A stretch of DNA of 64,000 nt, taken from Malacoraja senta (lineage: Eukaryota). The stretch's first letter is position 1. The number at the start of each line of letters is the position of its first letter. This document shows positions 13,744 through 63,150 of this stretch, one piece after another. The stretch spans positions 7,008,001 to 7,072,000 of the forward strand of contig CM075988.1 in NCBI GenBank assembly GCA_038087875.1. The letters run 5' to 3'. A program made the translations under genes and the position numbers. The notes below the pieces were generated by a model, which was given only the letters and a program-made list of their open reading frames with translations, was not told where the DNA came from and did not search any database.

Positions 13744-13943
13744 NNNNNNNNNNNNNNNNNNNNNNNNNNNNNNNNNNNNNNNNNNNNNNNNNNNNNNNNN
13801 NNNNNNNNNNNNNNNNNNNNNNNNNNNNNNNNNNNNNNNNNNNNNNNNNNNNNNNNNNNNNNNNNNNNNNNNNNNNNNNNNNNNNNNNNNNNNNNNNNNN
13901 NNNNNNNNNNNNNNNNNNNNNNNNNNNNNNNNNNNNNNNNNNN
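13744..13943. other. Assembly gap (200 N)
   Basis: Run of N. Confidence 1.
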
Positions 13944-15582: not shown

Positions 15583-18200
15583 TCAGATTCAGATTCAACT
15601 TTATTGTCATTGTGCAGTGTACAGTACAGAGACAACGAAATGCAGTTAGCATCTCCCTAGAAGAGCGACATAAATATGAGCAGTAAATAAATAAATCTAA
15701 TAAATCCTGGTGGGAGGAGTGTCCGGGGGGGGGGTGTGATTGGCAGTCACCGAGGTACAGTGTTGAGTAGTGTAACCGCCGCAGGGAAGAAGCTGTTCCT
15801 GGACCTGCTGGTCCGGCAACGGAGAGACCTGTAGCGCCTCCCGGATGGTAGGAGGGTAAACAGTCTGTGGTTGGGGTGAGAGCAGTCCTTGGCGATGCTG
15901 AGCGCCCTTCGCAGACAACGCTTGCTTTGGACAGACTCAATGGTGGGGAGTGAGGAACCGGTGATGCGTTGGGCAGTTTTCACCACCCTCTGCAGTGCTT
16001 TCCGGTCGGAGACAGAGCAGTTGCCATACCATACTGTGATGCAGTTGGTAAGGATGCTCTCGATGGTGCAGCGGTAGAAGTTCACCAGAATCCGAGGAGA
16101 CAGATGGACCTTCTTTAGTCTCCTCAGGAAGAAGAGACGCTGGTGAGCCTTCTTGACCAGAGTTGAGGTATTGTTGGTCCAAGAGAGGTCATCGGAGATG
16201 TTGACCCCCAGGAACCTGAAGCTGGAAACACGTTCCACCTCCCTCCCGTTAATGTGGATGGGGGTGTGCATGCCGCCCCTAGACTTCCTGAAGTCTACAA
16301 TGAGCTCCTTGGTCTTCTTGGAGTTAAGGGCCAGGTTGTTGTCAGCGCACCATGCTGCTAGGAGCTGGACCTCCTCCCTATAGGCCGACTCATCGTTGTT
16401 GCTGATGAGGCCAATCACCGTTGTATCATCTGCGTACTTGATGATGGTGTTAGTACCATGTACAGGTGTGCAGTCGTAGGTGAAGAGGGAGTAGAGGAGG
16501 GGGCTCAGCACACAGCCCTGTGGAACGCCGGTGTTCAGGGTGAGGGTTGAAGAGGTGTGCTTGTCTAACCTAACAGACTGGGGTCTGTTGGTTAGAAAGT
16601 CCAGTATCCAGTTGCAGAGGGAGGGGTCGATGCCCAGGTCACCGAGTTTGGTGATCAGTTTAGAGGGTATGATGGTGTTGAATGCTGAGCTGTAATCGAT
16701 GAACAGCATTCTTACGTAAGTGTCTCTGTTGTCGAGGTGGGAGAGGGCGGAGTGAAGTGCCGTTGAGATGGCATCCTCCGTACTCCTGTTCTTGCGGTAG
16801 GCAAACTGATAGGGATCCAACGTGGGGGGTAGGCAGCCTTTGAGGTGTGCCAGGACCAGCCTCTCGAAGCACTTGGCGATGATGGGAGTAAGTGCAACTG
16901 GGTGGAAGTCGTTGAGGCTTGCCGCAGTGGAGTGTTTTGGCACCGGCACGATGGAGGTGGATTTAAGGCACGTGGGCACAACTGCTTGGGCAAGTGACAG
17001 GTTGAAGATGTCAGTCCAGACGTCTGTCAGCTGCGCAGCACAGGTCCTGAGGACGCGCCCGGGGATGCCGTCGGGGCCAGCAGCCTTACGTGCATTAGTC
17101 CTACTCAGTGCCACGTACACGTCGAAGGGGGTGAGTGAGAGGGGCTGGTGATCGGCAGGGAGCACCGCCTTGATGGCCAACTGCCGATTGTCCCTATCGA
17201 AACGGCCATAGAAGTGGTTGAGCTCCTCAAGGAAGGAGGCGTTACTGGATGTGGGGGTGGTGTTGGTGGGTCTAAAGTCCGTGATGGCCTGGATGCCTTG
17301 CCACATGCGTCGGGGGTCGGAGTTGTTGTTGAAGTGCTCCTCAATCCTGAGTTTATGGCAGTGCTTGGCCTTCTTTATGCCCTTCTTCAGGTTAGCCCTG
17401 GATGAACTATAGGCTCGGGCATCGCCTGACCTGAAAGCGGTGTCCCGTGCTTTCAGCAGTAGCCTGACCTCGCTGTTCATCCATGGCTTCTGATTCGGGA
17501 ATATGGTCACCTGTTTGAGGGAGGTGACACTGTTGATGGTGGAGTTTATAAAGTCCAGAACAGATGATGTATAGGAGTCAATGTCCGTGTGGGAGTCAAG
17601 GGTGGCCTGGGCTGCAAACGCCTTCCAGTCAGTGTTTCCAAAACACTGCTGAAGTGTGGATTCCGCATCCTCTGACCAGACTTTAACTGTCCTCACAGTG
17701 GGTTTAACCCGTCTGATGAGTGGGGAGTACTTTGGGAGCAGGAACAATGAGAGGTGATCAGACTGTCCAAGGTGGGGGAGGGGGACGGCTTTGTAAGCTT
17801 CAGCCATGTTGGTGTAGACTTTGTCCAGTGTCTTGCCTTCTCTAGTGGCGAAGGAGACATGTTGGTGGAATTTGGGGAGTACAGTCTTCAGGTTGGAGTG
17901 ATTGAAGTCACCCGCAACAATGAAGGCTGCCTCGGGGTTGTGAGTCTGTTGTTTGCTAATGGCAGAATGCAGATCTTTCATTGCAAGCTTGGCATTAGCA
18001 TCAGGAGGAATATAGGCTGCAGTCACAACAGTGGAGGTAAACTCTCTGGGCAGATAGAACGGTCTGCATCTAACCAAGAGGAACTCTAGGTTAGCTGAGC
18101 AGTGACTCTCGATGATGGTGGTGTCCGTGCACCATGCTTTGTTTACATAAATGCACAGACCTCCACCTCTGGTCTTACCGGAGTCAATTGTCCTGTCCTG
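15583..18200 (-). mobile_element. Young 5'-truncated Rex1/Babar LINE
   Basis: (TCTGAA)n tail at the left end. TCCAT on both flanks (15578-15582, 18201-18205). Contains a long intact EN-RT ORF. Confidence 0.92.
15747..18197 (-). CDS. Rex1/Babar ORF (partial APE endonuclease plus reverse transcriptase), no native start
   Basis: 776-aa ORF ([31 protein letters not shown]). The frame stays open upstream to the truncation point ([23 protein letters not shown]). Confidence 0.85.
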
Positions 18201-18485
18201 TCCATGTCAGTATCCTACCCCCAATACCATGTGCTCTAATTTTGCCACTAATCTCCAATGTCGGACCTTAACAAATGCTTTCTGAAAGTCCAGGTAGACT
18301 ACATCCACTGGCTCTCCCTTGTCCATTTTCCCAGTTATATCCTCAAAAAAATTCCAGAAGATTAGTCAAGCATGATTTCCCCTTTGTAAATCCATGTTGA
18401 CGGACCGATCCTGTTACTACTTTCCAAGTGTGTCGCTATTTCATCTTTAACAATTGCCTCCCGTATCTTCCCCACCACCGATGTT

Positions 18486-32887: not shown

Positions 32888-33731
32888 GTTAGACTTTGGC
32901 TTCTCCAAACTCCCCAGCAGTAAGCATCAGACCAAAATCCATATGTATGATTTGAATATCAATGATGCATTTTAATCAGCAAAAAAATTATACTTAAAAA
33001 AACAAAACTTAAATCTATTTTTAATTTCTGCTTATTTAAATTTATCTCTTTTGTTGAAACAAATCTTATCATCTTGAGCTTAATTCCTCAGAGGGCAAGT
33101 AGAATCCTTGTGCCTTCTTCCTGGGTTACTTCAGAGAATTATTTCAGAAAGTGTAGCAATCATCTTGATTTATATAACTCCAATATAATTCTGTTGAATA
33201 AAGCTGATGCATTTATCAACATGAAATATTTACACCACTTTTCCTTATTGCCAATGCAAGTTGATTCTAAAGCATAAAACTGCAGTTCACCTGTTAATTC
33301 TGGATTACAATGTCACTCTTACGTGCCATAGAAAAAAAGAGAAATTCAATTATTGCATAGTGTATTTGGGATACATTTAGATTGAAGAACTTTTCTTGAG
33401 ACACTATAATGACATTGAGATTCTTAATGTGGTGAATGGATTCAGAAATTAGAAATCAGATTGTTTCGTCAGTTCAGTTAACTTCACCTTGAAAACTATG
33501 AAAAGTCTATTGAAGGATTGTCTTAATAAAGACCATGCAGGGAAAGAAGCCCTGCTAACCGCAAGTGACATAGTTGCATTTAACTTTTTTAAATGAGCAG
33601 AGGGGCTGGTATTATGAATAGAAGTCCAAAGCATGCATGAAAACAGCTTAATCAATTTATACATGCACTGGTATCTCATTTAAAACTTATGCTGATGAAA
33701 TCAGTTCTAAAAGATGTCATAGAATATTTAA

Positions 33732-33956
33732 GGTAGACACAAAATGCTGGAGTAAATCAGCAGGACAGGCAGCATCTCTGGAGAGACGCAATGGGTGACG
33801 TTTCGGGTCGAGACCATTCTTCAGTGTGAGTCTGAAGAAGGGTCCCAGCCCGAAACGTCACCCATTCCTTCTCTCAAGAGATGCTGCCTGTCACACTGAG
33901 TTACTCCAGCATTTTGTGCCTATTTTCGATTTAAACCAGCATTTGCAGTCCTTACA
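33732..33956. mobile_element. Palindromic PLE-derived element with back-to-back hammerhead motifs
   Basis: Inverted arms of about 90 nt; motifs at 33824-33797 (-) and 33832-33859 (+). Confidence 0.75.
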
Positions 33957-39760: not shown

Positions 39761-40365
39761 ATGTCTACTTTGTTTTAAAAGCTGTTGGACTAGCAACGTA
39801 ATTTGTGTTTTCATTTGTTTACCTGCATTATCTTTTTTTGCTATGTCAATCTGTTGTTAAACTCTTTAAGGTTCTGGAGGATGCTGCTAAGTAGTGCTCA
39901 TCTGTTTAAGACTGTTCATTGGCCCTTGATAAACCATTTCCTTATGACAGAAACTCAACCTCTAGCCAAAGATGCACAGTAGAATCTATATTACTAAAAG
40001 TCTGATCTTGACCACTTCCTGATTGATTTTAGAAAAAACGCGGCCACTTACGGCTGTGATTTTTGGCCATCTTACTCAGAGTCCCCCTCCGCTGTGCAGG
40101 ACAAGAGGATTTTTCCCATCGATGAAAAAATAAAAGAGTTATTCATGTTTAAAAAAGTGTGAGATTCTCTCTCCTGAAGGCCACGCCCCTTCCGGAGGGA
40201 CTATAAAACCCGGAAGTGTTGAGTGCCTCAGTCAGTCTATGCAAGATGGGGGAGCGACAGGGTCACGTCTCTCAGTCTGAGCTGTGAATAACACTGAACA
40301 CATGTCTACTAAACTGTGAGTGTGGTTTTGAGTGCCCTTAATGTGGTTTGAAAATGAAAATGTGT

Positions 40366-40877
40366 TTGGTTTGAAATAAAGCACAGCAAATGGTTGTTGG
40401 TGGTGGTTGGTTTGAAATAAAGCACTGCAAATGGTTGTTGATGGTGGTTGGTTTGAAATAAAGCACTGCAAATGGTTGTTGGTGGTGGTTGGTTTGAAAT
40501 AAAGCACGACAAATGGTTGTTGGTGGTGGTTGGTTTGAAATAAAGCACTGCAAATGGTTGTTGGTGGTGGTTGCTTTGAAATAAAGCACTGCAAATGGTT
40601 GGTGGTGGTTGGTTTGAAATAAAGCACTGCAAATGGTTGTTGATGGTGGTTGGTTTGAAATAAAGCACTGCAAATGGTTGTTGGTGGTGGTGGTGGGTTT
40701 GAAATAAAGCACTGCCAATGGTTGTTGGCGGTGGTTGGTTTGAAATAAAGTACTGCAAATGGTTGTTGGCGGTGGTTAGTTTGAAATAGAGCACTGCAAA
40801 TGGTTGTTGGTGGTGGTTGTTTTGAAATAAAGCACTGCAAATGGTTGTTGGTGGTGGTTGGTTTGAAATAAAGCACA
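40366..40877. repeat. 41-bp minisatellite, about 12.5 copies
   Basis: Unit TTTGAAATAAAGCACTGCAAATGGTTGTTGGTGGTGGTTGG. Confidence 0.95.
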
Positions 40878-41266
40878 TGATTAAAAGTCTAAACTTGACA
40901 ACTTCCTGTTTGCACTGTATTTTTTTTTTTAGATAAAACGCTACCACTTACGGCTGTGATTTTTGGCCATCTTACTCAGTCCCCCTTCGCTCATCAGGTG
41001 CAGAGGATTCTTCCCATCAATGAAAAATAAAAGTGTTATTAGTGTTTAAAAAATGTTGAGAATCTCTCTCCTGTCAATCACGCCATGATGGCCATGCCCC
41101 TTCCAGTGGGAGGGGGAGGGATTACAAAACCCGGAAGTGTGGGTGTGGCTTAGTCTCTGCAAGATGGGGGAGGGAGAGGTCACGACTGTCTGAGCTGTGA
41201 ATCAACTGAACACACTGAATGTCTACTGAACTATGTGTGGTGTTTTGTGTGGTTTTATGGGAGTTT

Positions 41267-41949
41267 CACCCTGCTTGAAATGGTATGAAACTGCATTTGA
41301 ATGTGGTGGCCTTGCACCTTGCATGCAATGGTATGAAACTCCACTTGAATTTGGTGGCCTTGCACCCTGCTTGAAATGGCATGAAACAGCACTAGCATTT
41401 GGTGGCCTTGCACCCTGCTTGAAGTGGCATGAAACTGCACTTGAGTTTGGTCCTGCATCCTGCTTGAAGTGGCAGGAAACTGCATGAGTTTGTTGGCCCT
41501 GCACCCTGCTTGAAGTGGTAGGAAACTGCACTTGAGTTTGGTGGCTTTGCACCTGCTTGAAGTGGTAGGAAACTGCACTTGAATTTGGTGGCCTTGCACC
41601 CTACTTGAAGTGGTACGACACTGCATTTGAATTTGGTGGCCTTGCACCCTGCTTAAAGTGGTCGGAAACTGCACTTGAATCTGGTGGCCTTGCACCCTGC
41701 TTGAAATGGTATGAAACTGCATTTGAATTTGGTTGCCTTGCACCCTGCTTGAAATGGTATGAAACTGCACTTGAATTTGGTGGCCTTGCACCCTGCTTGA
41801 AATGATATGAAACTGCACTTGAATTCATTGGCCTTGCACCCTGCTTGAAGTGGTATGAAACTGCACTTGAATTTGGTGACCTTGCACCCTGCTTGAAGTG
41901 GTAGGAAACTGCATTTGAATTTGGTGGCCTTGCACCCTGCTTGAAATGG
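41267..41949. repeat. 48-bp minisatellite, about 14 copies
   Basis: Unit CACCCTGCTTGAAGTGGTATGAAACTGCACTTGAATTTGGTGGCCTTG. Confidence 0.95.
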
Positions 41950-42367: not shown

Positions 42368-42516
42368 ATATATAGAAGCCTTAAGAGCACAGATGATGGA
42401 AAAGATTAAATTGCAGAATAATGATCTGCCACCACTCTGCTGCTGTGGATCTGATTTTTGGGATTCGCATCCAGACAAGTGCGCAAATAATTGTGTCTTC
42501 TACAAAAATCCAAAAG
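42368..42516 (+). CDS. CCDC15: CCDC15 coding exon 9
   Basis: gcag| YIEALRAQMMEKIKLQNNDLPPLCCCGSDFWDSHPDKCANNCVFYKNPK |gtatgc; hallmark Cys-rich motif; phase 2-1. Confidence 0.96.
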
Positions 42517-42948: not shown

Positions 42949-44026
42949 GTAGTAACTGTACTATCTGTCTCCACTACTTTGGCAGCTGGTTGCAAATATT
43001 CACCACCCTTATTTGACAACTTACCCCTCGGACCTACTCTACATTTCACTCCTCCCACCGTCAAACTTAACTTTGTCGATCAAATTTGGACCATAATTTT
43101 CAATAAATGGATTCTAGCCAAAACAGTGAGGCTCAATTGAGATCTACAGTACTGGAACCCAATTAATTTCACAACATGTATGATGTATCACAATACAAAG
43201 CTAAGCAGTAATAACTATAATAAATTTGACACTTATAATCAACCAAAATGACTTCAGTCATTGGGATTGCAGCCGTGTACATGGCACTCCAACAATGACT
43301 GAGTTTCTATTTGTGTATTCATTGATCAAGATTATAGCTTTATTTTGCTAAAATAAATTCAACACCAATTTTTTAAAATGTTAAAGTCTCAATTAATTAA
43401 AGCTATCCCCTTTATTAATGGATAAGAATATACATCTGCTATGTCAGATAATAAACATTGTGATTTCCTGTGAAATACTCTGGATTTTTCCTTTAGGTTA
43501 TATTACTAACTCTTATTGGATTTGACAAGTGTCTTGATTTTAGCACGTTAATTTTCTGCAACACTTTGTGCTACACTTTACTTGACTGTTTTGAAAGCTT
43601 GAAAATTGCTCAAATCTTTGTGCTGAACATTTCCAACAGTCGAAGCTTTAGGGTTTCATACAATGCCACTCGAGCAGATGCAGGCCTAATTTTCCCACAG
43701 ATAACGTGGAATGCTTCACTGTTTTATTACGGTAATAAATAAATTCTGCTTAAAATTAATTAAAGCATTAAAAAAATGTAAACATAGTTGTTCTGAAAAG
43801 GCTGTTTTTAGAAACACATGTCATTGAGATCTATGGCCTTGGTGCACAAATTACAGGGTTAGCAATCACTGCAGGCTTCAGAGAACAATAATTCACAATT
43901 TGCCTTTTGTACAATTTGGGTCCAGTTTCAGCCAGTTGATAATTGTGTAATCAAACCAAACTGAAAGATGGGCTTCACTAAATCTGTACCAAATGTTCCT
44001 CTCCATTTTCCCTTCTTTTTCCACAG

Positions 44027-44145
44027 TGTACGCCAGAGCACTACAGTCTGTGTTATGCTCATATGATGCTTGGGACGGACACTACAGAAATCGTGCTTCA
44101 CTGAAAAAGTTTGCATTGATGAATGTATGTCAAACCAAGAAGTAA
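44027..44145 (+). CDS. CCDC15: CCDC15 last coding exon (10)
   Basis: Long pyrimidine tract, ccacag| (V)YARALQSVLCSYDAWDG...CQTKK* ; resembles the recalled human AYTRALHSFINSCD. Confidence 0.92.
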
Positions 44146-44690: not shown

Positions 44691-46554
44691 TGTAGAGAGT
44701 CCAAACGTCGTGTACAAATGTTTTTATTAAGACATTACAGGTTTGGCATACATGTGAGTTTGGTACACTCTAACATAAAGTCATTGTTGCTGCTGTTGAG
44801 CGAGGTTGTTGACTCGCGATCTCGAGCTAAGTTTCTGCAAGTGGCTTGACTACCAGGTGGCACCACATGACCCCTCCCCAGAACCGGAGGAATGAAAACG
44901 AGCATCAGACGAAACGCGGCGGCCTGAACTCGTAAATACAACTGAAACACAACCGTCAAAGATGAGAGCGGGAGGCTGGGTCCCCTGTACAGGCTGACCA
45001 ATGTCCCAAATGAGCGGGCTGAAGACAAGCCACCCATGTCGAGCACAAAAGTCACATTAAGTAGACACACAGGCAGTCCTTGAGGGCAGAAGCGGGCGGG
45101 ACGGCGAAACAGAAAAGAGCAAGCCCACCTTCATCCGGAAGGTCGAGGGCAGCTCCTGCTGTGCGTCTGTGGGAACCCAGGCCATGGGTCGAGATTGTGA
45201 GGCCCGCGGGTGCAGTCTGCGCTCCAGCTGTGGGCCAACCTGGCAGCGGCTGGGAGGCGACAGCAACAATGAAAGAACAAGGAAAAACAACAGGAGTGGA
45301 AAATGAAAAAAAAACTGTGCAGACACCAGACGTCCGGATGGGGCTGCCATTGATGGCCGTTAGAGAAAGACCTGGCAGCCCGGAACGAGCGTCGACCCCC
45401 CCCCATCGGGGCAAATTGCTCACCGCTGCTCCCGTGTCAACAAAGGAACGCCTCGGAATGCCGGTCTCCAACGTAGAGGCGATGTTGCTGGCCGGCTGAG
45501 GCGTTTCCTGGATGCTTGCAGGTCGGTCGGCCTCGACGGGCCTCGGAACCCACTGCTGGAGGTAGGATCACCACGTCACTCAAGACCGGCCGCGCTGCCG
45601 TTCCCTCGGTGAAAACAGGAACCGGCGGCCATGGGTCAGGACCGTGGGGCCCGCGGGCGCAGTCGGCACTGCCTGTAGGCTGTCCCGACCGTGGGCCATG
45701 GAATCCATCGCGGTCCTGCTGACTCATGACTGACCGAGGCTCAACCCTGTTGCTGGGCCGGCCACAGCTCGACGTACGGACAGCCAGCGGATGGGGATTA
45801 TCGAAATCATCACCGGCAAGGAGCAGGCGGACGTCATTGGGCCTCCACTCTAGGTAAACCTGCTCGATCGGGAGGCAGGGCCGGCGGTCGTCAATCAAGA
45901 TCTGGATCGCGCCTATCGACCCGGACGGCCTGCGATCGCCGAGACCAGTCATAGGCAGGAGTCGAGCGGCCCGATCGCAGCGGTGGAGCCCAAAGGTATG
46001 TTACAGGAGCGCGTTGAGGCCGTTGTCGGCGACATATTGTTACAGCACGGAGTTGACGGCTGTAACTATAGCGCAAAATCACTGTAGAGCTGGGCTGTCG
46101 GCTGCGGACAGCGAGAAATCTAAAATATCGTTTTGGAACGTCGGGTCACCACTGTAGAGAGTCCAAACGTCGTGTACAAACGTTGTTTTAATTAAGACAT
46201 TGCAGGTTTGGCATACATGCGAGTTTAACATAAAGTCTTCTTGCGTATGGCGTGCACAGCCTAAAGTTGTAGGACAACTTGTTCTATTTGATTGTGCACG
46301 CCAGGTTGATTGCATTCGTCGAAACAGGGCAGACCACCTGAAGATTGCAATCTCCCACCCCAACATAAAGTCATTGTTGCTGCTATTGAGCGAGGTTGTT
46401 GACACACGATCTCAAGCTAAGTTTCTGCTGTTGTTGTAGGACACACCTCTAAACTCATGATGTTCTCTTCCCGCCAAACGCAGTCATGTGACCGTTCCAG
46501 TTCTGGTGGTGAGGGTTCGATCAGTAAGTGGCTTGACCACCAGGTGGTGCCACA
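44691..46554 (-). mobile_element. Internally deleted Gypsy LTR retrotransposon with both LTRs
   Basis: LTRs 44691-44867 and 46153-46554 (TG..CA). GTTA TSD on both sides. tRNA-Trp-like PBS at 46151-46138 (TGGTGACCCGACGT). PPT GGGGAGGGG at 44879-44871. Gag, protease (FVDTGAAVS) and integrase C-terminal (TFVLDMGG) remnants. Confidence 0.92.
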
Positions 46555-46995
46555 GTTAACTATTTTCCACAATTTGCCCTTCCACAAGTGCAAACATACA
46601 TTTAGTTTTGACACTACAACTTGTGGAAAAAGTGTTATCAGCCACAGTTTAGCAATTAATAAAGCATTCAAACTAATGATGTGAAATTGAAATCAGGTGA
46701 ATTAAAATCAGCAAATTAAGATGACCACAGCTGTTCCATTATTGTGATGACTTTGGCCTTATTCATATTTGTTTTATTTGTGTGTGCCCTCTTTAAATAA
46801 AAATGCTGACTTGAAATGAATTGTTTTTTCATGTCTAATAGTCTAACCAATAAATAAAATCAATTGAGTAATGCATACACTACTGTTTTAATTTGCGCTG
46901 CTAATTTCAAGTTTAATAATTTGTGAATATTTTGGTGTATATATATAATATATATATACATTTTTTAATTAATTTTATTTAAACATTATATATAC

Positions 46996-47242
46996 ATGGT
47001 TCAAACCTGACTACGGGTGCTGTCTATATGGAATTTGTCCGTTATCCCTATGACTGCGTGAGTTTTCTCCGGGTGCTCTGGTTTCCTCCCACACTAAAGT
47101 CGAAAGATGTTTAGGTTAATTTGGCTTTGGTTAAAAAAATATATAACTTGTCCCTAGTGTGTAGGATAGTGCTAATGTACGGGGATCACTGGTCAGCGTG
47201 GTCTCGGTGGACCGAAGTGCCTGTTTCTGCGTTGTATCTAAA
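46996..47242 (+). mobile_element. HE1-type V-SINE (5'-truncated)
   Basis: Homologous to 9205-9508 from the B box onward. Confidence 0.75.
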
Positions 47243-48303
47243 AATAATGCAGGAGAAATGGTCAGAGATGCGAAGCAGAGATTGCTATGTCAGTCATATT
47301 GAGCACCTCAATGCATATACCCTGAATAAACATAGGGACTTATTAAATATACCTTGTCTATTGTGACCATGTATTCTTTGAACCCTAGAAGTTTATTATT
47401 TCCCCCCACATCTGTGAATAGCACAGGATAAGGGTACATTTGAAAAGAAATGGTAAAAAAATAATTGATAATTAATATGGTGCTAAAACAACTTAAAAGA
47501 TCCAAGTAGCTGCTTTTGTCCTAAATTTTGCCTACACTCAATTATCTCCAAAAACAGATACAAAAATCATTCATTAGGAATATTTAATATTTGAATTATT
47601 TCTGCTCTAAATGGTACAAACCAATTCTATGTAAGGGGGTGAATACTGTTGATTATTGCACAATATATATTGTACTTTGGCTATATATTGTAAAAACAAA
47701 CCTATTCTTCCAAAAGAGTTTGACTATAAATGTTGGATAATTTCCTTCCTTAATCTTTGGGGAAGAGGTTCGGGTGAGTAAATTTGTCAAAAAAAGAATC
47801 TTGTCGCAATTGATATTTTTAGTCTCAACAATGGTTTATTCAACATTGTTAAAGAATAAAAACAGAAATAGTCAGGCAGCATCTGTGGAAAGAAAAGGCA
47901 AATATTTGGGATGATTTCTGCATAAGGGTCCCGGTCATGAAAAGTTAATTTTCTCTTTCTACAAATACTTATCGACCTGCTTTTGTTTTTATTTCATCTT
48001 TACAGCATCTTTATTTAATTTTCATTGTGTCAATTGGTTAGGTTATGAAAATGACTCTGTGATAAATGATCAGGCAAGATATTATTGAAAGTTAGACATG
48101 GTCTGAATGGCCTGATTGTACTTATCAGACCAAGCATTAGAAAATGATAATTCAGGTGTTATTTTTAGATGAACTAATCTAATGAGTTCTACCCCTGCTT
48201 ACTTGATTTCCTCCTGCTTGATTCTACACTACTTTTCCCCTTGTACCTCGCTCAGGGCAATGTTGCACTTTGGGAGGTTGACTGCAAGGGGAAAGTATAT
48301 ACA

Positions 48304-49405
48304 CTTCTTGCGTTTGAGGCAGCAGAAGTTATGTGACGCCCTCCAGGCGCTGTAGCCAGTTCACTGTGCTGTTGTCGAGGGCCGTGAGGTCTACCCCTCC
48401 ACCAGGGGGGCTGAGGACAGCGCAGTCAAAAATGACATGCTGTGCTGTTTGCTGGTCTGCTCCACACACGCAGGCTGATGATGAACGCAGCCCCCAATGA
48501 TGCATGTTGGCGTTGAACCGGCCGACCCCTGTACGGAGCCGGTTCAGGGCGACCCACTCTTTTCGTGGCTGGTCCGAGCCAGGTGGGCTGTGGTGTTCGG
48601 TGCAACTGTGAATTGAGGAGGTCGCGAAGTCTGTTCCCAGCTGGTTCTCCATGCTCCTAGTGTGTTGAAAGCGTCGCTGCGTGACGGGAGAAGGGGCGAC
48701 GAGATTACATGCGTTGAGGTCCCAGTTGCTGTGAGTTCGGGGCAAGGTGGTGCAAAGGATGTTTGGCGTTTGATGGGGCCTTGCACACCAGCCTGTGGGT
48801 GAAGTACTCTCTGCGAAGCTTGGCGGGTGCGATACCTGCGAGCACCGGAAGAAGATCCGTCAGAGTAGGCCGGAAGCAACCGGTGATGATCCGCATGGTG
48901 TCGTTAAGGATGGCGTCTAGCTTGCTAACATGAGCGCTGTGGCACCATGCTGGGGCGGCGTACTCAGCGACGCTGTACACGAGTGCAAGAGCACTGGTTA
49001 AGTATATTAGGGCTCCTGTTGTCAGAGCCCTGTCATCTGACCTCAGTCAGGCGAACAACAACAAACAGACAGCAGCAGAAATAACAACGAACAGCAACAG
49101 CTTGCAGCTCTAATGCAACCTCAGTCGCCGCAGTTGGGCGCCAACCAGGAGCATGCGCCCTTTTTAGGGGGGGGGCACCTACAGATGTCGAACCGGATGG
49201 CATCACCCTGCTGCAGCTGAATGCAGAAGGCCTCACCAACGACAAGATCACCGTCATTGAACATCTGCTACAGACCCACAAAGTCATTGCAATCCTGCTC
49301 CAAGAGACTCACAAATGGGATAGCTCCCATCTGAAGATCCCTGGTTATACCCTGGCTGCCTACACAGAGCGACACCCACGGGATTGCCACTTTTGTAAGG
49401 AACAC
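48304..49405 (-). mobile_element. Vingi-type (Ingi-related) LINE insertion with inverted 5' segment, inside a CR1 fragment
   Basis: Minus 3' part: LVYSVAEYAAPAW, WVALNRLRTGVGRF, CVCG..QTAQHVIFDC, GAAG tail. Plus 5' part: LQLNAEGL..ILLQETH (APE N-terminus). TSD AAGTATATACA at 48293-48303 and 49406-49416. Confidence 0.85.
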
Positions 49406-52400
49406 AAGTATATACAGTTAATGCAGGACCTTTAACAGCATTGATATTCAAAGAGATCTCGTGGTCCAAGTCCAAAGCTTCCTGAAAATAGTAAAGCAGT
49501 AGATAAAGGTGTAAAGACTTATGGTATACTTGCCTTCATTGGAAAGGGCATTGAGATTAACAATCAAGAAGCCATGTAGCAGCTTTATAAAACATTGATG
49601 AGGTTCAAGATCCAAGGTCTTTTATTGTCACGTGTACCGATTAAGGTACAGTGATATTCGATTAGGCCACACTTTGAGTATTCTGTGCTTTTCTAATTGC
49701 CCCCAAACAGAAAGGATGTGGAGAGGTTTACTGGGATGGAGTCTGGATTAGACGGTATTGGCTAAAAGGAGAGGTTGGACAAATTTGCATTGTTTTCTAT
49801 GCAATGTCGGAGGTTGAGGGGAGACCTGATAGAAGAATGTCAAATTATGAGAGGCATAGATAGGGTAGTCAATCAGAACCGTTATCCCAGGGTGAAAATA
49901 TCAAATACTAGATGGCAGAACTTTAAAGTCAGAGGGGGAAATGTTTTTTTTTTACACTGTGGTAGGTGCCTGGAACGTGCTGTCGGAGGTAGTGGTGGAA
50001 GCAGATCTAATGGTTTTGAAATAGGCATATGAATATGCAGAGAATGGAGAGATATAGGTCATATGTAGGTAGAAGGGAGTAGTTTAATTTTGGACCATGT
50101 TTGACACAGTCGTTGTGGGCTGAAGGGCCTGTTCCACTGCTGGAGTGTTCTATGTTCACAAAAGCAACAATAAAACACTGGGTCATTCAACCTCTCCAAC
50201 CCCCACTTCTCTTTATTCCACAAAAACACTGTTAACATTTCTTCATTTGATTGTTATCCTTCTTGCAGCATTAAGAAACTAAACAATGTTTTTGTCTGTC
50301 ACCACACTGCAGCATTCTTTGTTCTTGAACCGCTCATTAACATTGGACAAACTTCTCTCAGTTTTGGTCGCAGTTATCCATCCATATCTACAAAACTCCT
50401 AAACTTGTGGTAGGATGATACAGCTGTTATCAGGCCACTGAATCATCCTACCACCAGCCAGCCAATGGGGTGCTGAACTACTAACAACCTCTTTGGTAAC
50501 CCTCTGTGTTGATCATTATTCCCATCCCATTTCACATAGAGAGTGGTGAATCTCTGGAGGGCCGGCGGCCGTCAAGATCTGGATCGCGCCCATCGACCCG
50601 GACGGCCTGCGATCGCCGAGACCAGTCATAGGCAGGAGTCGAGCGGCCCGATCGCAGCGGTGGAGCCCAAAGGTGAAGTAGTGGGTGAAGTACTCTCTGC
50701 GAAGCTTGGCGGGTGCGATACCTGCGAGCACCGGAAGAAGATCCGTCAGAGTAGGCCGGAAGCAACCGGTGATGATCCGCATGGTGTCGTTGAGGATGGC
50801 GTCTAGCTTGCTAACATGAGCGCTGTGGCACCATGCTGGGGCGGCGTACTCAGCGACGCTGTACACGAGTGCAAGAGCACTGGTTAAGTATATTAGGGCT
50901 CCTGTTGTCAGAGCCCTGTCATCTGACCTCAGTCAGGCGAACAACAAACAGACAGCAGCAGAAATAACAACGAACAGCAACAGCTTGCAGCCCTAATGCA
51001 ACCTCAGTCACCGCAGTTGGGCGCCAACCAGGAGCATGCGCCCTTTTTAGGGGGGGCACCTACGGATGTCGAACCGGATGGCATCACTCTGCTGCAGCTG
51101 AATGCAGAAGGCCTCACCAACGACAAGGTCACCGTCATTGAACATCTGCTACAGACCCACAAAGTCATTGCAATCCTGCTCCAAGAGACTCACAAATGGG
51201 ATAGCTCCCATCTGAAGATCCCTGGTTATACCCTGGCTGCCTACACAGAGCGACACCCACAGGATTGCCACTTTTGTAAGGAACACAAGTATATACAGTT
51301 AATGCAGGACCTTTAACAGCATTGATATTCAAAGAGATCTCGTGGTCCAAGTCCAAAGCTTCCTGAAAATAGTAAAGCAGTAGATAAAGGTGTAAAGACT
51401 TATGGTATACTTGCCTTCATTGGAAAGGGCATTGAGATTAACAATCAAGAAGCCATGTAGCAGCTTTATAAAACATTGATGAGGTTCAAGATCCAAGGTC
51501 TTTTATTGTCACGTGTACCGATTAAGGTACAGTGATATTCGATTAGGCCACACTTTGAGTATTCTGTGCTTTTCTAATTGCCCCCAAACAGAAAGGATGT
51601 GGAGAGGTTTACTGGGATGGAGTCTGGATTAGACGGTATTGGCTAAAAGGAGAGGTTGGACGAATTTGCATTGTTTTCTCTGCAATGTCGGAGGTTGAGG
51701 GGAGACCTGATAGAAGAATGTCAAATTATGAGAGGCATAGATAGGGTAGTCAATCAGAACCGTTATCCCAGGGTGAAAATATCAAATACTAGATGGCAGA
51801 ACTTTAAAGTCAGAGGGGGAAATGTTTTTTTTTTACACTGTGGTAGGTGCCTGGAACGTGCTGTCGGAGGTAGTGGTGGAAGCAGATCTAATGGTTTTGA
51901 AATAGGCATATGAATATGCAGAGAATGGAGAGATATAGGTCATATGCAGGTAGAAGGGAGTAGTTTAATTTTGGACCATGTTTGACACAGTCGTTGTGGG
52001 CTGAAGGGCCTGTTCCACTGCTGGAGTGTTCTATGTTCACAAAAGCAACAATAAAACACTGGGTCATTCAACCTCTCCAACCCCCACTTCTCTTTATTCC
52101 ACAAAAACACTGTTAACATTTCTTCATTTGATTGTTATCCTTCTTGCAGCATTAAGAAACTAAACAATGTTTTTGTCTGTCACCACACTGCAGCATTCTT
52201 TGTTCTTGAACCGCTCATTAACATTGGACAAACTTCTCTCAGTTTTGGTCGCAGTTATCCATCCATATCTACAAAACTCCTAAACTTGTGGTAGGATGAT
52301 ACAGCTGTTATCAGGCCACTGAATCATCCTACCACCAGCCAGCCAATGGGGTGCTGAACTACTAACAACCTCTTTGGTAACCCTCTGTGTTGATCATTAT

Positions 52401-55400
52401 TCCCATCCCATTTCACATAGAGAGTGGTGAATCTCTGGAGGGCCGGCGGCCGTCAAGATCTGGATCGCGCCCATCGACCCGGACGGCCTGCGATCGCCGA
52501 GACCAGTCATAGGCAGGAGTCGAGCGGCCCGATCGCAGCGGTGGAGCCCAAAGGTGAAGTAGTGGGTGAAGTACTCTCTGCGAAGCTTGGCGGGTGCGAT
52601 ACCTGCGAGCACCGGAAGAAGATCCGTCAGAGTAGGCCGGAAGCAACCGGTGATGATCCACATGGTGTCGTTGAGGATGGCGTCTAGCTTGCTAACATGA
52701 GCGCTGTGGCACCATGCTGGGGCGGCGTACTCAGCGACGCTGTACACGAGTGCAAGAGCACTGGTTAAGTATATTAGGGCTCCTGTTGTCAGAGCCCTGT
52801 CATCTGACCTCAGTCAGGCGAACAACAAACAGACAGCAGCAGAAATAACAACGAACAGCAACAGCTTGCAGCCCTAATGCAACCTCAGTCACCGCAGTTG
52901 GGCGCCAACCAGGAGCATGCGCCCTTTTTAGGGGGGGCACCTACGGATGTCGAACCGGATGGCATCACTCTGCTGCAGCTGAATGCAGAAGGCCTCACCA
53001 ACGACAAGGTCACCGTCATTGAACATCTGCTACAGACCCACAAAGTCATTGCAATCCTGCTCCAAGAGACTCACAAATGGGATAGCTCCCATCTGAAGAT
53101 CCCTGGTTATACCCTGGCTGCCTACACAGAGCGACACCCACAGGATTGCCACTTTTGTAAGGAACACAAGTATATACAGTTAATGCAGGACCTTTAACAG
53201 CATTGATATTCAAAGAGATCTCGTGGTCCAAGTCCAAAGCTTCCTGAAAATAGTAAAGCAGTAGATAAAGGTGTAAAGACTTATGGTATACTTGCCTTCA
53301 TTGGAAAGGGCATTGAGATTAACAATCAAGAAGCCATGTAGCAGCTTTATAAAACATTGATGAGGTTCAAGATCCAAGGTCTTTTATTGTCACGTGTACC
53401 GATTAAGGTACAGTGATATTCGATTAGGCCACACTTTGAGTATTCTGTGCTTTTCTAATTGCCCCCAAACAGAAAGGATGTGGAGAGGTTTACTGGGATG
53501 GAGTCTGGATTAGACGGTATTGGCTAAAAGGAGAGGTTGGACGAATTTGCATTGTTTTCTCTGCAATGTCGGAGGTTGAGGGGAGACCTGATAGAAGAAT
53601 GTCAAATTATGAGAGGCATAGATAGGGTAGTCAATCAGAACCGTTATCCCAGGGTGAAAATATCAAATACTAGATGGCAGAACTTTAAAGTCAGAGGGGG
53701 AAATGTTTTTTTTTTACACTGTGGTAGGTGCCTGGAACGTGCTGTCGGAGGTAGTGGTGGAAGCAGATCTAATGGTTTTGAAATAGGCATATGAATATGC
53801 AGAGAATGGAGAGATATAGGTCATATGCAGGTAGAAGGGAGTAGTTTAATTTTGGACCATGTTTGACACAGTCGTTGTGGGCTGAAGGGCCTGTTCCACT
53901 GCTGGAGTGTTCTATGTTCACAAAAGCAACAATAAAACACTGGGTCATTCAACCTCTCCAACCCCCACTTCTCTTTATTCCACAAAAACATTGTTAACAT
54001 TTCTTCATTTGATTGTTATCCTTCTTGCAGCATTAAGAAACTAAACAATGTTTTTGTCTGTCACCACACTGCAGCATTCTTTGTTCTTGAACCGCTCATT
54101 AACATTGGACAAACTTCTCTCAGTTTTGGTCGCAGTTATCCATCCATATCTACAAAACTCCTAAACTTGTGGTAGGATGATACAGCTGTTATCAGGCCAC
54201 TGAATCATCCTACCACCAGCCAGCCAATGGGGTGCTGAACTACTAACAACCTCTTTGGTAACCCTCTGTGTTGATCATTATTCCCATCCCATTTCACATA
54301 GAGAGTGGTGAATCTCTGGAGGGCCGGCGGCCGTCAAGATCTGGATCGCGCCCATCGACCCGGACGGCCTGCGATCGCCGAGACCAGTCATAGGCAGGAG
54401 TCGAGCGGCCCGATCGCAGCGGTGGAGCCCAAAGGTGAAGTAGTGGGTGAAGTACTCTCTGCGAAGCTTGGCGGGTGCGATACCTGCGAGCACCGGAAGA
54501 AGATCCGTCAGAGTAGGCCGGAAGCAACCGGTGATGATCCGCATGGTGTCGTTGAGGATGGCGTCTAGCTTGCTAACATGAGCGCTGTGGCACCATGCTG
54601 GGGCGGCGTACTCAGCGACGCTGTACACGAGTGCAAGAGCACTGGTTAAGTATATTAGGGCTCCTGTTGTCAGAGCCCTGTCATCTGACCTCAGTCAGGC
54701 GAACAACAAACAGACAGCAGCAGAAATAACAACGAACAGCAACAGCTTGCAGCCCTAATGCAACCTCAGTCACCGCAGTTGGGCGCCAACCAGGAGCATG
54801 CGCCCTTTTTAGGGGGGGCACCTACGGATGTCGAACCGGATGGCATCACTCTGCTGCAGCTGAATGCAGAAGGCCTCACCAACGACAAGGTCACCGTCAT
54901 TGAACATCTGCTACAGACCCACAAAGTCATTGCAATCCTGCTCCAAGAGACTCACAAATGGGATAGCTCCCATCTGAAGATCCCTGGTTATACCCTGGCT
55001 GCCTACACAGAGCGACACCCACAGGATTGCCACTTTTGTAAGGAACACAAGTATATACAGTTAATGCAGGACCTTTAACAGCATTGATATTCAAAGAGAT
55101 CTCGTGGTCCAAGTCCAAAGCTTCCTGAAAATAGTAAAGCAGTAGATAAAGGTGTAAAGACTTATGGTATACTTGCCTTCATTGGAAAGGGCATTGAGAT
55201 TAACAATCAAGAAGCCATGTAGCAGCTTTATAAAACATTGATGAGGTTCAAGATCCAAGGTCTTTTATTGTCACGTGTACCGATTAAGGTACAGTGATAT
55301 TCGATTAGGCCACACTTTGAGTATTCTGTGCTTTTCTAATTGCCCCAAACAGAAAGGATGTGGAGAGGTTTACTGGGATGGAGTCTGGATTAGACGGTAT

Positions 55401-58400
55401 TGGCTAAAAGGAGAGGTTGGACGAATTTGCATTGTTTTCTCTGCAATGTCGGAGGTTGAGGGGAGACCTGATAGAAGAATGTCAAATTATGAGAGGCATA
55501 GATAGGGTAGTCAATCAGAACCGTTATCCCAGGGTGAAAATATCAAATACTAGATGGCAGAACTTTAAAGTCAGAGGGGGAAATGTTTTTTTTTTTACAC
55601 TGTGGTAGGTGCCTGGAACGTGCTGTCGGAGGTAGTGGTGGAAGCAGATCTAATGGTTTTGAAATAGGCATATGAATATGCAGAGAATGGAGAGATATAG
55701 GTCATATGCAGGTAGAAGGGAGTAGTTTAATTTTGGACCATGTTTGACACAGTCGTTGTGGGCTGAAGGGCCTGTTCCACTGCTGGAGTGTTCTATGTTC
55801 ACAAAAGCAACAATAAAACACTGGGTCATTCAACCTCTCCAACCCCCACTTCTCTTTATTCCACAAAAACATTGTTAACATTTCTTCATTTGATTGTTAT
55901 CCTTCTTGCAGCATTAAGAAACTAAACAATGTTTTTGTCTGTCACCACACTGCAGCATTCTTTGTTCTTGAACCGCTCATTAACATTGGACAAACTTCTC
56001 TCAGTTTTGGTCGCAGTTATCCATCCATATCTACAAAACTCCTAAACTTGTGGTAGGATGATACAGCTGTTATCAGGCCACTGAATCATCCTACCACCAG
56101 CAGCCAGCCAATGGGGTGCTGAACTACTAACAACCTCTTTGGTAACCCTCTGTGTTGATCATTATTCCCATCCCATTTCACACAGAGAGTGGTGAATCTC
56201 TGGAGGGCTGGTGGCCGTCAATCAAGATCTGGATCGCGCCCATCGACCCGGACGGCCCTGCGATCGCCGAGACCAGTCATAGGCAGGAGTCGAGCCCGAT
56301 CGCAGCGGTGGAGCCCAAAGGTGAAGTAGTGGGTGAAGTACTCTCCTGCGAAGCTTGGCGGGTGCGATACCTGCGAGCACCGGAAGAAGATCCGTCAGAG
56401 TAGGCCGGAAGCAACGGTGATGATCCGCATGGTGTCGTTGAGGATGGCGTCTAGCTTGCTAACATGAGCGCTGTGGCACCATGCTGGGGCGGCGTACTCA
56501 GCGACGCTGTACACGAGTGCAAGAGCACTGGTTAAGTATATTAGGGCTCCTGTTGTCAGAGCCCTGTCATCTGACCTCAGTCAGGCGAACAACAAAACAG
56601 ACAGCAGCAGAAATAACAACGAAACAGCAACAGCTTGCAGCCCTAATGCAACCTCAGTCACCGCAGTTGGGCGCCAACCAGGAGCATGCGCCCTTTTTAG
56701 GGGAGGCACCTACGGATGTCGAACCGGATGGCATCACCCTGCTGCAACTGAATGCAGAAGGCCTCACCAACGACAAGGTCACCGTCATTGAACATCTGCC
56801 TACAGACCCACAAAGTCATTGCAATCCTGCTCCAAGAGACTCACAAATGGGATAGCTCCCATCTGAAGATCCCTGGTTATACCCTGGCTGCCTACACAGA
56901 GCGACACCCACAGGATTGCCACTTTTGTAAGGAACACAAGTATATACAGTTAATGCAGGACCTTTAACAGCATTGATATTCAAAGAGATCTCGTGGTCCA
57001 AGTCCAAAGCTTCCTGAAAATAGTAAAGCAGTAGATAAAGGTGTAAAGACTTATGGTATACTTGCCTTCATTGGAAAGGGCATTGAGATTAACAATCAAG
57101 AAGCCATGTAGCAGCTTTATAAAACATTGATGAGGTTCAAGATCCAAGGTCTTTTATTGTCACGTGTACCGATTAAGGTACAGTGATATTCGATTAGGCC
57201 ACACTTTGAGTATTCTGTGCTTTTCTAATTGCCCCCAAACAGAAAGGATGTGGAGAGGTTTACTGGGATGGAGTCTGGATTAGACGGTATTGGCTAAAAG
57301 GAGAGGTTGGACGAATTTGCATTGTTTTCTCTGCAATGTCGGAGGTTGAGGGGAGACCTGATAGAAGAATGTCAAATTATGAGAGGCATAGATAGGGTAG
57401 TCAATCAGAACCGTTATCCCAGGGTGAAAATATCAAATACTAGATGGCAGAACTTTAAAGTCAGAGGGGGAAATGTTTTTTTTTTTACACTGTGGTAGGT
57501 GCCTGGAACGTGCTGTCGGAGGTAGTGGTGGAAGCAGATCTAATGGTTTTGAAATAGGCATATGAATATGCAGAGAATGGAGAGATATAGGTCATATGCA
57601 GGTAGAAGGGAGTAGTTTAATTTTGGACCATGTTTGACACAGTCGTTGTGGGCTGAAGGGCCTGTTCCACTGCTGGAGTGTTCTATGTTCACAAAAGCAA
57701 CAATAAAACACTGGGTCATTCAACCTCTCCAACCCCCACTTCTCTTTATTCCACAAAAACATTGTTAACATTTCTTCATTTGATTGTTATCCTTCTTGCA
57801 GCATTAAGAAACTAAACAATGTTTTTGTCTGTCACCACACTGCAGCATTCTTTGTTCTTGAACCGCTCATTAACATTGGACAAACTTCTCTGTTTTGGTC
57901 GCAGTTATCCATCCATATCTACAAAACTCCTAAACTTGTGGTAGGATGATACAGCTGTTATCAGGCCACTGAATCATCCTACCACCAGCCAGCCAATGGG
58001 GTGCTGAACTACTAACAACCTCTTTGGTAACCCTCTGTGTTGATCATTATTCCCATCCCATTTCACATAGAGAGTGGTGAATCTCTGGAGGGCCGGCGGC
58101 CGTCAAGATCTGGATCGCGCCCATCGACCCGGACGGCCTGCGATCGCCGAGACCAGTCATAGGCAGGAGTCGAGCGGCCCGATCGCAGCGGTGGAGCCCA
58201 AAGGTGAAGTAGTGGGTGAAGTACTCTCTGCGAAGCTTGGCGGGTGCGATACCTGCGAGCACCGGAAGAAGATCCGTCAGAGTAGGCCGGAAGCAACCGG
58301 TGATGATCCGCATGGTGTCGTTGAGGATGGCGTCTAGCTTGCTAACATGAGCGCTGTGGCACCATGCTGGGGCGGCGTACTCAGCGACGCTGTACACGAG

Positions 58401-59971
58401 TGCAGAGCACTGGTTAAGTATATTAGGGCTCCTGTTGTCAGAGCCCTGTCATCTGACCTCAGTCAGGCGAACAACAAACAGACAGCAGCAGAAATAACAA
58501 CGAACAGCAACAGCTTGCAGCCCTAATGCAACCTCAGTCACCGCAGTTGGGCGCCAACCAGGAGCATGCGCCCTTTTTAGGGGGGGCACCTACGGATGTC
58601 GAACCGGATGGCATCACTCTGCTGCAGCTGAATGCAGAAGGCCTCACCAACGACAAGGTCACCGTCATTGAACATCTGCTACAGACCCACAAAGTCATTG
58701 CAATCCTGCTCCAAGAGACTCACAAATGGGATAGCTCCCATCTGAAGATCCCTGATTATACCCTGGCTGCCTACACAGAGCGACACCCACAGGATTGCCA
58801 CTTTTGTAAGGAACACAAGTATATACAGTTAATGCAGGACCTTTAACAGCATTGATATTCAAAGAGATCTCGTGGTCCAAGTCCAAAGCTTCCTGAAAAT
58901 AGTAAAGCAGTAGATAAAGGTGTAAAGACTTATGGTATACTTGCCTTCATTGAAAGGGCATTGAGATTAACAATCAAGAAGCCATGTAGCAGCTTTATAA
59001 AACATTGATGAGGTTCAAGATCCAAGGTCTTTTATTGGTCACGTGTACCGATTAAGGTACAGTGATATTCGATTAGGCCACACTTTGAGTATTCTGTGCT
59101 TTTCTAATTGCCCCCAAACAGAAAGGATGTGGAGAGGTTTACTGGGATGGAGTCTGGATTAGACGGTATTGGCTAAAAGGAGAGGTTGGACAAATTTGCA
59201 TTGTTTTCTATGCAATGTCGGAGGTTGAGGGGAGACCTGATAGAAGAATGTCAAATTATGAGAGGCATAGATAGGGTAGTCAATCAGAACCGTTATCCCA
59301 GGTGAAAATATCAAATACTAGATGGCAGAACTTTAAAGTCAGAGGGGGAAATGTTTTTTTTTTACACTGTGGTAGGTGCCTGGAACGTGCTGTCGGAGGT
59401 AGTGGTGGAAGCAGATCTAATGGTTTTGAAATAGGCATATGAATATGCAGAGAATGGAGAGATATAGGTCATATGCAGGTAGAAGGGAGTAGTTTAATTT
59501 TGGACCATGTTTGACACAGTCGTTGTGGGCTGAAGGGCCTGTTCCACTGCTGGAGTGTTCTATGTTCACAAAAGCAACAATAAAACACTGGGTCATTCAA
59601 CCTCTCCAACCCCCACTTCTCTTTATTCCACAAAAACATTGTTAACATTTCTTCATTTGATTGTTATCCTTCTTGCAGCATTAAGAAACTAAACAATGTT
59701 TTTGTCTGTCACCACACTGCAGCATTCTTTGTTCTTGAACCGCTCATTAACATTGGACAAACTTCTCTCAGTTTTGGTCGCAGTTATCCATCCATATCTA
59801 CAAAACTCCTAAACTTGTGGTAGGATGATACAGCTGTTATCAGGCCACTGAATCATCCTACCACCAGCCAGCCAGCCAATGGGGTGCTGAACTACTAACA
59901 ACCTCTTTAGGTAACCCTCTGTGTTGATCATTATTCCCATCCCATTTCACACAGAGTGGTGAATCTCTGGA
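48795..59971. repeat. Tandem array of six ~1.88-kb units
   Basis: Unit starts at 48795, 50681, 52562, 54443, 56329 and 58212. Near-identical; five junction inserts. Confidence 0.97.
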
Positions 59972-60192
59972 ACTCTCTGCCTCAGAAGGTAGTTGAGGCC
60001 AGTTCATTGGCTATATTTAAGAGGGAGTTAGATGTGGCCCTTGTGGCTAAAGGGATCAGGGGGTATGGAGAGAAGGCAGATACAGGGTACTGAGTTGGAT
60101 GATCAGCCATGATCATATTGAATGGCGGTGGACGGCTCGAAGGGCCGAATGGCCTACTCCTGCACCTATTTTCTATGTTTCTATGTTTCTAT
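59945..60192 (+). mobile_element. CR1/HER1 3' end with (CTATGTTT)n tail
   Basis: Continues the sequence that is cut at every array junction. Confidence 0.8.
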
Positions 60193-62099: not shown

Positions 62100-63150
62100 A
62101 TCGGCAACAGCCAATTGCTGGTTTCAATACGGCTTGAAGGGGGAAGAGAAAAGATTTTGTTGGCTGGAAATCCCACCCACCCACTGCAGAATCTGCACTC
62201 TGATTACTTCCATTGGCTGCTCGTTTATCTTGCGTCAGTTTCAGCCGGTCACATGCGAGCCGGTCGCTGGTGACTCGCCCTGAAGCTCGCAGTGGTGACA
62301 AATAACAAGCACCCTGTATGCGATTCAGACCTTCTCAGTGTTCACCTGATCAGTGCCGGAAGCCTGGTTCCAGCATCTGCGGCTCCTCGTCTCCACGCCT
62401 GCACATTTGTCATCGCGTTTGGCCGGAATAATGCATTGTTCCCATGTAATTTGTTACATCACCGGGGCCCTATGGATACAGCAGCGGCTTTAAATCAGAC
62501 CAGGCTTCAATCACGGCTGAAGACGCTCTCGGCGCTTTCCTTAGGCTGGGAGAGCCTTGGACCCTAAAAGCGAGGCAGAAAGACCAGGAACTGCAGCGGG
62601 ATTTTTTTCAGGAGGGAGCCTTGTTTATTTCTGTTTAAACCCTGTTTATTTCTGTCCTGGGTATTGTCGCCGGTAGCGAATGGATCATGCGCTCCGCTGT
62701 GCCTCCGGGGATTCGTTGTATCCAGGCATTCACCAGAGACAGCTGGTAAGCGTCGGTCCATTGTCTGGGCGAGGATTATCTGGGTGTCAGTTTTCATTTG
62801 TGCGCGCTCTCTCTCTCTCTCTCCCCGCTACGGATTTAACCCATCCTTCCAGGGGAAGATGTGGGTCCGGTCTTGCGCGACACCTTGTCTTCCACTGTGG
62901 CCCTCGGCCTCCGTCTCTATATTCCCCTCGGTCCACTCTGCCTGGCTCCTGCTGTCTGTCCAACACCACGCTGTTATCTCTGGGGCGAGCAAGCGTTTAT
63001 GTTGCCCACGGGAGTTGAACAAACAATATTTTCACTTTCGAGCGACCTGTCATAAATGCTCTGACATGCGGGTTCACCGCCCGCGGGTTACATTACCCCC
63101 TTCCCACTATCGCTCAAAACAGATTGGTTTTCACCTTAGCTGCCTGCCCC
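62100..63150 (+). promoter_or_regulatory. CpG-enriched promoter / 5' UTR region of SLC37A2
   Basis: Non-repetitive CpG-rich sequence around the first coding exon; CCAAT motifs near 62111 and 62212, TGCGTCA near 62231. Confidence 0.6.
62687..62745 (+). CDS. SLC37A2: SLC37A2 (glucose-6-phosphate exchanger) first coding exon; gene continues beyond the window
   Basis: MRSAVPPGIRCIQAFTRDS(W) |gtaagc, 59 nt, versus the recalled human MRSSLAPGVWFFRAFSRDSW. Lies directly downstream of CCDC15, as in human. Confidence 0.85.

Follow-up and report, generated by a model that had tools for sequence, protein, structure and literature searches.

We find that a 64,000-nt stretch of genomic DNA from Malacoraja senta (assembly GCA_038087875.1, contig CM075988.1, positions 7,008,001 to 7,072,000 of the forward strand; this whole stretch is called the window) holds a tandem array at 48795..59971 (+ strand), which consists of six head-to-tail units of ∼1.76 kb and five junctions. 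Every junction carries an insert that matches a decayed Gypsy-type long terminal repeat (LTR) element outside the array. We think it likely that the array is a heritable, probably neutral macrosatellite that was born in two stages, a template-switch duplication followed by unequal exchange.

Both a self-BLAST of the window and a unit alignment show six units and five junctions, as an initial annotation of this DNA had claimed. The units are:

48795..50558, + strand: unit 1, unbroken with the left flank; 7 private substitutions, and 10–12 substitutions relative to each other unit
50681..52439, + strand: unit 2
52562..54320, + strand: unit 3
54443..56204, + strand: unit 4, whose end has two states in common with unit 6 (an extra CAGC repeat and C at 56183)
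56329..58089, + strand: unit 5, with several 1-bp indels that are possibly consensus errors
58212..59971, + strand: unit 6, which continues into the intact 3′ end of the right-hand long interspersed nuclear element (LINE)

The period is 1881–1886 bp, within the range of macrosatellites or large variable number tandem repeats (VNTRs; tandem units of at least 100 bp), and the array has enlarged the ancestral locus by 9417 bp. Units 2 to 6 differ pairwise by 2–7 substitutions in the unit alignment. On the left, a single minus-strand reading frame passes through 48795, and on the right a paralogous repeat (14505-14748) aligns unbroken across 59971 (196/246 identical); therefore both flanks are the original elements, interrupted by the array, in line with the initial annotation. 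A host segment has thus been re-replicated head-to-tail with both flanks intact, as in the template-switch class of rearrangements. The only N gap in the window is a 200-N scaffold gap at 13744-13943, outside the array. A coding role for the unit was rejected, as its open frames are short retroelement remnants and its Pfam hits all lie below the cut-off.

The junctions and the proposed source of their inserts are:

50558..50680, + strand: junction 1, derived type; a 117-bp templated insert, then the GAAGTA stutter
52439..52561, + strand: junction 2, derived type
54320..54442, + strand: junction 3, derived type
56204..56328, + strand: junction 4, probably the oldest type; it keeps 4 bp of the donor that are missing in the other four junctions
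58089..58211, + strand: junction 5, derived type
45877..45997, + strand: insert template, a gag-like region coded on the minus strand
44691..46554, − strand: short, internally deleted Gypsy-type LTR element, with LTRs at 44691-44867 and 46153-46554 and a GTTA target-site duplication

All five junctions contain 117–121 bp that match 45877-45997 at 93–95% (self-BLAST, E 1e-45 to 1e-48). The initial annotation had described ∼116 bp of nearly identical sequence at every junction; the match is present at all five, but the junctions are not identical, as junction 4 differs. Compared to the donor, junctions 1, 2, 3 and 5 have 2 substitutions and a 4-bp gap, while junction 4, which lacks this gap, carries two small indels and another 2 substitutions. 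Apart from the 4-bp gap the insert carries 119 of the 121 donor bases, i.e. it has a genomic template, as is characteristic of the template-switch class. The insert is entered with 1 bp of overlap with the unit end and left with a GGT overlap with the unit start, after which six bases are repeated with 0 overlap (the GGTGAAGTA-GTGGGTGAAGTA stutter). The GGT microhomology and the stutter were as previously claimed, and the 1-bp overlap at entry can now be added to them. Each junction therefore records three switches, with 1, 3 and 0 bp of overlap, which is the short microhomology, not long homology, of template switching; all templates have the same orientation and lie within 5 kb. A separate template for the stutter was discarded, since elsewhere just 9–10 bp chance matches occur. 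In junction 4, C has changed to T at two CpG sites (56209 and 56212), which would be expected if the insert is methylated, with sequencing error as another possible cause.

The donor element is 1.86 kb long and decayed, with no long open frame and with a primer-binding-site-like motif at 46140-46151; its LTRs differ by 10 substitutions in 170 aligned bases. The end of the donor region lies 2798 bp before the array start, which bears out the 2.8 kb of the initial annotation. At E ≤0.001, 88 homologues of the gag-like frame were found, and a domain scan of 12 of them detected DUF7041 in 8, reverse transcriptase (RT) or RNase H in 3 and neither in 2. With its paired TG...CA LTRs, its 4-bp target-site duplication and its gag homology, the donor has the features of a Gypsy-type element, and we base this label on the LTRs, the target-site duplication and the homologues with DUF7041, RT or RNase H. 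The left LTR (44691-44867) is without two internal blocks (∼125 and ∼97 bp) of the right one, and a similar LTR-internal skip is found in family contigs of three of the four sequencing runs used below (joint 46226-46362).

The variants within the array bear on how it grew. Junction 4 holds three states that look older, namely the 4 bp of the donor and the two states at the end of unit 4 that are common only to unit 6, one of which is also present in the paralogous repeat. These older states suggest that the derived junction spread to four of the five positions. In a four-gamete test, 9 of 15 pairs of shared sites showed all four combinations. Because this pattern is not expected of a single burst, the mosaic of variants would favour repeated unequal exchange or conversion over one rolling-circle burst. 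The initial annotation had offered rolling-circle and unequal-crossover amplification side by side: amplification after the junction was formed stands, and of the two routes unequal exchange would be the favoured one. Junction 4 is unlikely to be a polishing artefact made from donor reads, as it keeps the base of the insert at both donor-insert differences.

Independent support was sought in sequencing reads. Two of 24 runs, samples of one same-species study (X23 and X24), share >70% of the words of the window; the word shares of the 22 others were 0.05–0.20, and from these we compared as relatives X1 and X3, which are ∼3% diverged in the flanks. Contigs of X23, X24, X1 and X3 were aligned to 45998-50720, and all results refer to the matches listed, 8 per run. 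Contig 16 of X23 (49839-50643, at depth 17.6, with 2 differences and 0 gaps) runs through the unit-to-insert join of junction 1, which is of the derived type. The depth of unit contigs relative to flank contigs, a rough measure, was 4.3–4.9 in X23 (3 versus 3 contigs; low coverage of this run biases the ratio down) and 7.7–11.0 in X24 (4 versus 3 contigs). In the relatives it was 0.58–0.88 in X1 (3 versus 3 contigs) and 0.93 in X3 (1 versus 2 contigs). Contigs that seemed to be other family copies or to straddle elements were left out of these ratios (X23 contigs 10 and 13; X24 contig 18; X1 contigs 1 and 5; X3 contigs 25 and 28-31). Both relatives carry the segment once, at the same site (X1 contigs 6-8, X3 contig 32). 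At 50229, X23 and X24 both show the base that most units of the array have. As depth is raised in the same-species runs and not in the two relatives, the array exists and, within the limits of this rough measure, is lineage-specific, having arisen after the split from them. By the same rough measure, the different ratios of X23 and X24 indicate that copy number may vary between individuals. The end of X23 contig 16 at 50643 falls near a 3-bp gap of junction 4 but is one base off, and was not used.

Several observations weigh against the two-stage origin or weaken its support. Contig depth is rough and the library type is not on record. The sole spanning contig comes from a run that is possibly the window's own sample, as either X23 or X24 may be. 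Neither the insert-to-unit join nor the stutter was seen among the 32 contig matches listed; this join and the unit order are taken from the assembly. Units 4 to 6 hold 24 of the 29 private indel columns, an excess that suggests consensus errors, and the four-gamete result could be spurious if the assembly mixes haplotypes. These error-like indels, together with the X24 depth, which implies 8–11 copies rather than the 6 assembled, and hence that the assembled count may be wrong, are what could be said for the array being an assembly artefact, an explanation that the initial annotation had itself raised for junction and copy number. We consider it very improbable, as a short-read contig crosses one join at 4–5 times the flank depth, depth is raised in the two same-species runs only, the relatives are single-copy and the array contains no N gap. 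An assembly error in copy number or unit order does not equal the absence of the array; it is a possibility to be taken seriously, if still an unlikely one. The same 1-bp indels, many of them in the right half of the array, would also fit a history in which the first event was as we propose and was followed by a single burst of rolling-circle amplification or by the re-integration of a 1.88-kb circle, with the mosaic contributed by the assembly. Rolling-circle amplification is a recognised route, and units 2 to 6 differ by just 2–7 substitutions. Such a history would nevertheless have to accommodate two junction types, of which one has three older states that agree with each other, the incompatibility of 9 of 15 site pairs with one tree, and columns 992 and 1010, where the outer two units share states against all four inner units; it therefore seems unlikely to us. 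Least credible of all is that a composite mobile element or a dispersed satellite arrived at this locus as an array: the unit is indeed made of transposon pieces, but both outer ends run into interrupted elements and the relatives have the same segment once at this site.

We also asked whether the donor was local, and we favour the neighbouring Gypsy remnant as the template of the insert. Contig 26 of X3 crosses the boundary between LTR and flank, so that the donor element is present at the same site in this relative and thus predates the duplication. At 13 of 40 positions the insert shares rare residues of the donor, which were seen in at most 6 of 70–87 homologues, and the source of the insert was therefore a decayed copy. 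The two differences in 121 bp between donor and insert are compatible with the 11/1761 (0.6%) by which unit 1 differs from the rest (Fisher p 0.20). An alternative source would be a distant sibling of the element or its cDNA, the neighbour being a coincidence. Insert and local donor are, after all, separated by two substitutions, at one of which the insert carries the residue of 68/86 homologues; LTR depth suggests tens of family copies, and one further gag-region contig of X24, at depth 44–48, indicates that sibling copies exist, which also counts against a local template. However, with the nearest homologue (P0001) as reference, one donor-insert difference falls on the donor side and one on the insert side; at the latter the local donor equals P0001, and residue 40 adds a position at which donor and insert are alike and P0001 differs. 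The P0001 sequence starts at the first differing site, and the polarity call there depends on its start codon. At the gag end the summed depth is only 2–4 times single copy, and if the genome is assumed to measure 2.5–5 Gb, any of 4–400 copies would fall within 5 kb with a probability of 1e-5 to 2e-3. A distant source is thus quite unlikely, and the local Gypsy remnant is retained as the probable template.

In the first stage of the proposed origin, germline repair of a break or stalled fork would have let a DNA end switch template at 0–3 bp of overlap; the switches can be read in the junctions, and the enzymes are presumed. From the end of the 1.76-kb segment this DNA end would have jumped to the Gypsy remnant 2.8 kb upstream and copied ∼121 bp there without a change of orientation. 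It would then have reached the segment start, copied 6 bases, slipped back and continued, with a tandem duplication with a templated insert as the outcome. The machinery may have been replicative template switching or DNA polymerase theta (Pol theta) joining of an aborted repair intermediate; Pol theta and fork stalling and template switching/microhomology-mediated break-induced replication (FoSTeS/MMBIR) are indistinguishable from one junction. In the second stage, the two copies would have misaligned, and repeated unequal crossover or conversion would have multiplied unit and junction together. The derived junction would thereby have reached four of five positions, with junction 4 staying in the older form and unit 1 the least homogenised. 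The order given by the initial annotation, one template-switching event and then amplification, fits all the tests made. Neutral drift is the default for the fate of the array.

A weak likeness of the two break sites may have aided the first stage:

48806..48814, + strand: ACTCTCTGC, 11 bp inside the left breakpoint
59972..59980, + strand: ACTCTCTGC, immediately after the right breakpoint

With 20-bp half-windows this 9-bp match was equalled by 99/20,000 random pairs and by 83 and 69 of 6,809 fixed-end comparisons, so that chance would produce it in about 1% of cases. With 15-bp half-windows it lies outside and nothing was significant; found post hoc, the match is a hint at most and adds to the reservations listed above. 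When the break regions were compared with the Gypsy element, no homology exceeded 11 bp (E 0.07 for the best match). A hairpin trigger was rejected, as the donor, the donor with its flanks and the two breakpoints folded no more strongly than shuffles (z +1.56, −0.32, +0.03 and −0.83, respectively), and no G-quadruplex motif was listed for 43–62 kb.

Both parts of this history have precedents, and the comparisons below refer to passages of the papers cited. Among structural variants (SVs) of the 1000 Genomes data, 871 (53%) of the complex sites that were assessed had a template no more than 10 kb away, a figure for deletions (PMC4617611); germline FoSTeS/MMBIR junctions include a 376-bp insert from nearby loci (PMC5120786); and 'cycles of templated insertions' re-replicate a host segment (PMC7025897). 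The array resembles these in the short microhomology per switch, the insert from within 10 kb and the re-replicated host segment. It differs in that they are single events in people or tumours, whereas the Malacoraja senta junction was inherited and multiplied at least 5 times. In C. elegans helq-1, Pol theta-dependent tandem duplications of 100 bp to 10 kb (median ∼1 kb) show microhomology and templated and patchwork inserts (PMC8654963), and those of tnsl-1 show microhomology and flank-derived inserts of 1–20 bp (PMC13031629); the passages of PMC13031928 add nothing on higher copy numbers. Size, microhomology and templated inserts are alike in these and in the array, and its 6-base stutter is in keeping with them. 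The 121-bp insert from 2.8 kb outside is atypical, as Pol theta inserts match the break flanks and are 1–20 bp long (PMC13031629), a further reservation about a Pol theta route.

Satellite birth is described as duplication followed by non-reciprocal exchange, often from transposons (PMC12692304, PMC9659126), and some macrosatellites or large VNTRs, with tandem units of at least 100 bp, affect nearby human genes (PMC4063668). As in macrosatellites (PMC4063668) and transposon-derived satellites (PMC9659126, PMC12692304), the units are head-to-tail, >100 bp, transposon-derived and lineage-specific, possibly homogenised by non-reciprocal exchange and probably under-counted in the assembly. In contrast to them, the array has 6–11 copies at one known locus, its unit is an arbitrary slice across nested elements and not a transposon module, and its founding junction and donor are still readable. 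In literature listings on this locus, on elasmobranch satellites and on arrays founded by a templated junction, which cover few subscription journals, no such case was found. Examples of both steps, a tandem duplication that carries a locally templated insert and the subsequent growth of an array, have been published (PMC4617611, PMC8654963, PMC12692304), and a single locus adds no new mechanism. As a natural case, the array cleanly illustrates how satellites are born under the accepted model (two monomers, followed by non-reciprocal exchange), and its founding repair, its donor and the order of changes are still legible. It would gain weight as a pattern with which to search genomes for young arrays whose junctions are templated, or if SLC37A2 responded to copy number.

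The surroundings of the array contain the following further features:

48304..49405, no single strand: non-LTR element in two head-to-head pieces, with the left breakpoint inside
44026..44145, + strand: probable last coding exon of CCDC15, an open frame ending in a stop, deduced from the exon at 42369-42515
62687..62746, + strand: probable first coding exon of SLC37A2; 20 codons align to residues 1-20 (sole hit, weak, E 0.4)

The exon at 42369-42515 belongs to CCDC15 (best named hits rays and sharks, 92–98%), which identifies the host as a cartilaginous fish. Between the probable CCDC15 stop and the array start lie 4650 bp, and 2716 bp separate the array end from the probable SLC37A2 ATG. The earlier placement of the array between these genes thus agrees with a firm CCDC15 exon and a probable SLC37A2 exon. 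Each unit has a LINE 5′ piece that points at SLC37A2 and a CpG-rich insert, with the array 2.7 kb before the start codon. On this basis the array could be a copy-number-polymorphic macrosatellite that acts as a variable regulator of SLC37A2, with copy number tuning methylation or expression, a role that we regard as improbable. If it were true, the junction would document in full how, in a cartilaginous fish, a single repair error became a regulatory allele that segregates.

The non-LTR element at 48304..49405 is one which we take to be a Vingi, and CR1 is likewise a name that we presume for unit content. Pfam gave only sub-threshold non-LTR hits on the LINE content of the unit (zf-RVT, endonuclease). 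Of the three transposable element classes from which the unit was said to be built, three families are indeed present, but they belong to two orders only (two LINE-type, one LTR-type). An 11-bp direct repeat (48293-48303, 49406-49416) flanks the non-LTR element. Over 48293-49416 its 3′ part is on the minus strand and its 5′ part on the plus strand, and 8 bases of the 11-bp repeat recur at the inversion point (49000-49007). The arrangement resembles the outcome of twin priming in an element with an internal deletion. The opposite-strand joint 48361/49233 is found in family members of all four runs.

Elsewhere in the window, an intron of CCDC15 contains two minisatellites, at 40362-40876 (41 bp × 12.6) and 41267-41949 (48 bp × 14.4), with duplicated flanks (39995-40334 resembles 40882-41251). 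An 819-codon open frame at 15747-18206 (− strand), with an endonuclease remnant, RT and ALKBH8_N, represents a young LINE copy, which has a shorter relative at 7382-8742. Finally, an interspersed repeat of ∼100 bp, with about ten copies in the window, forms head-to-head or palindromic pairs at 678-852 and 33730-33953.

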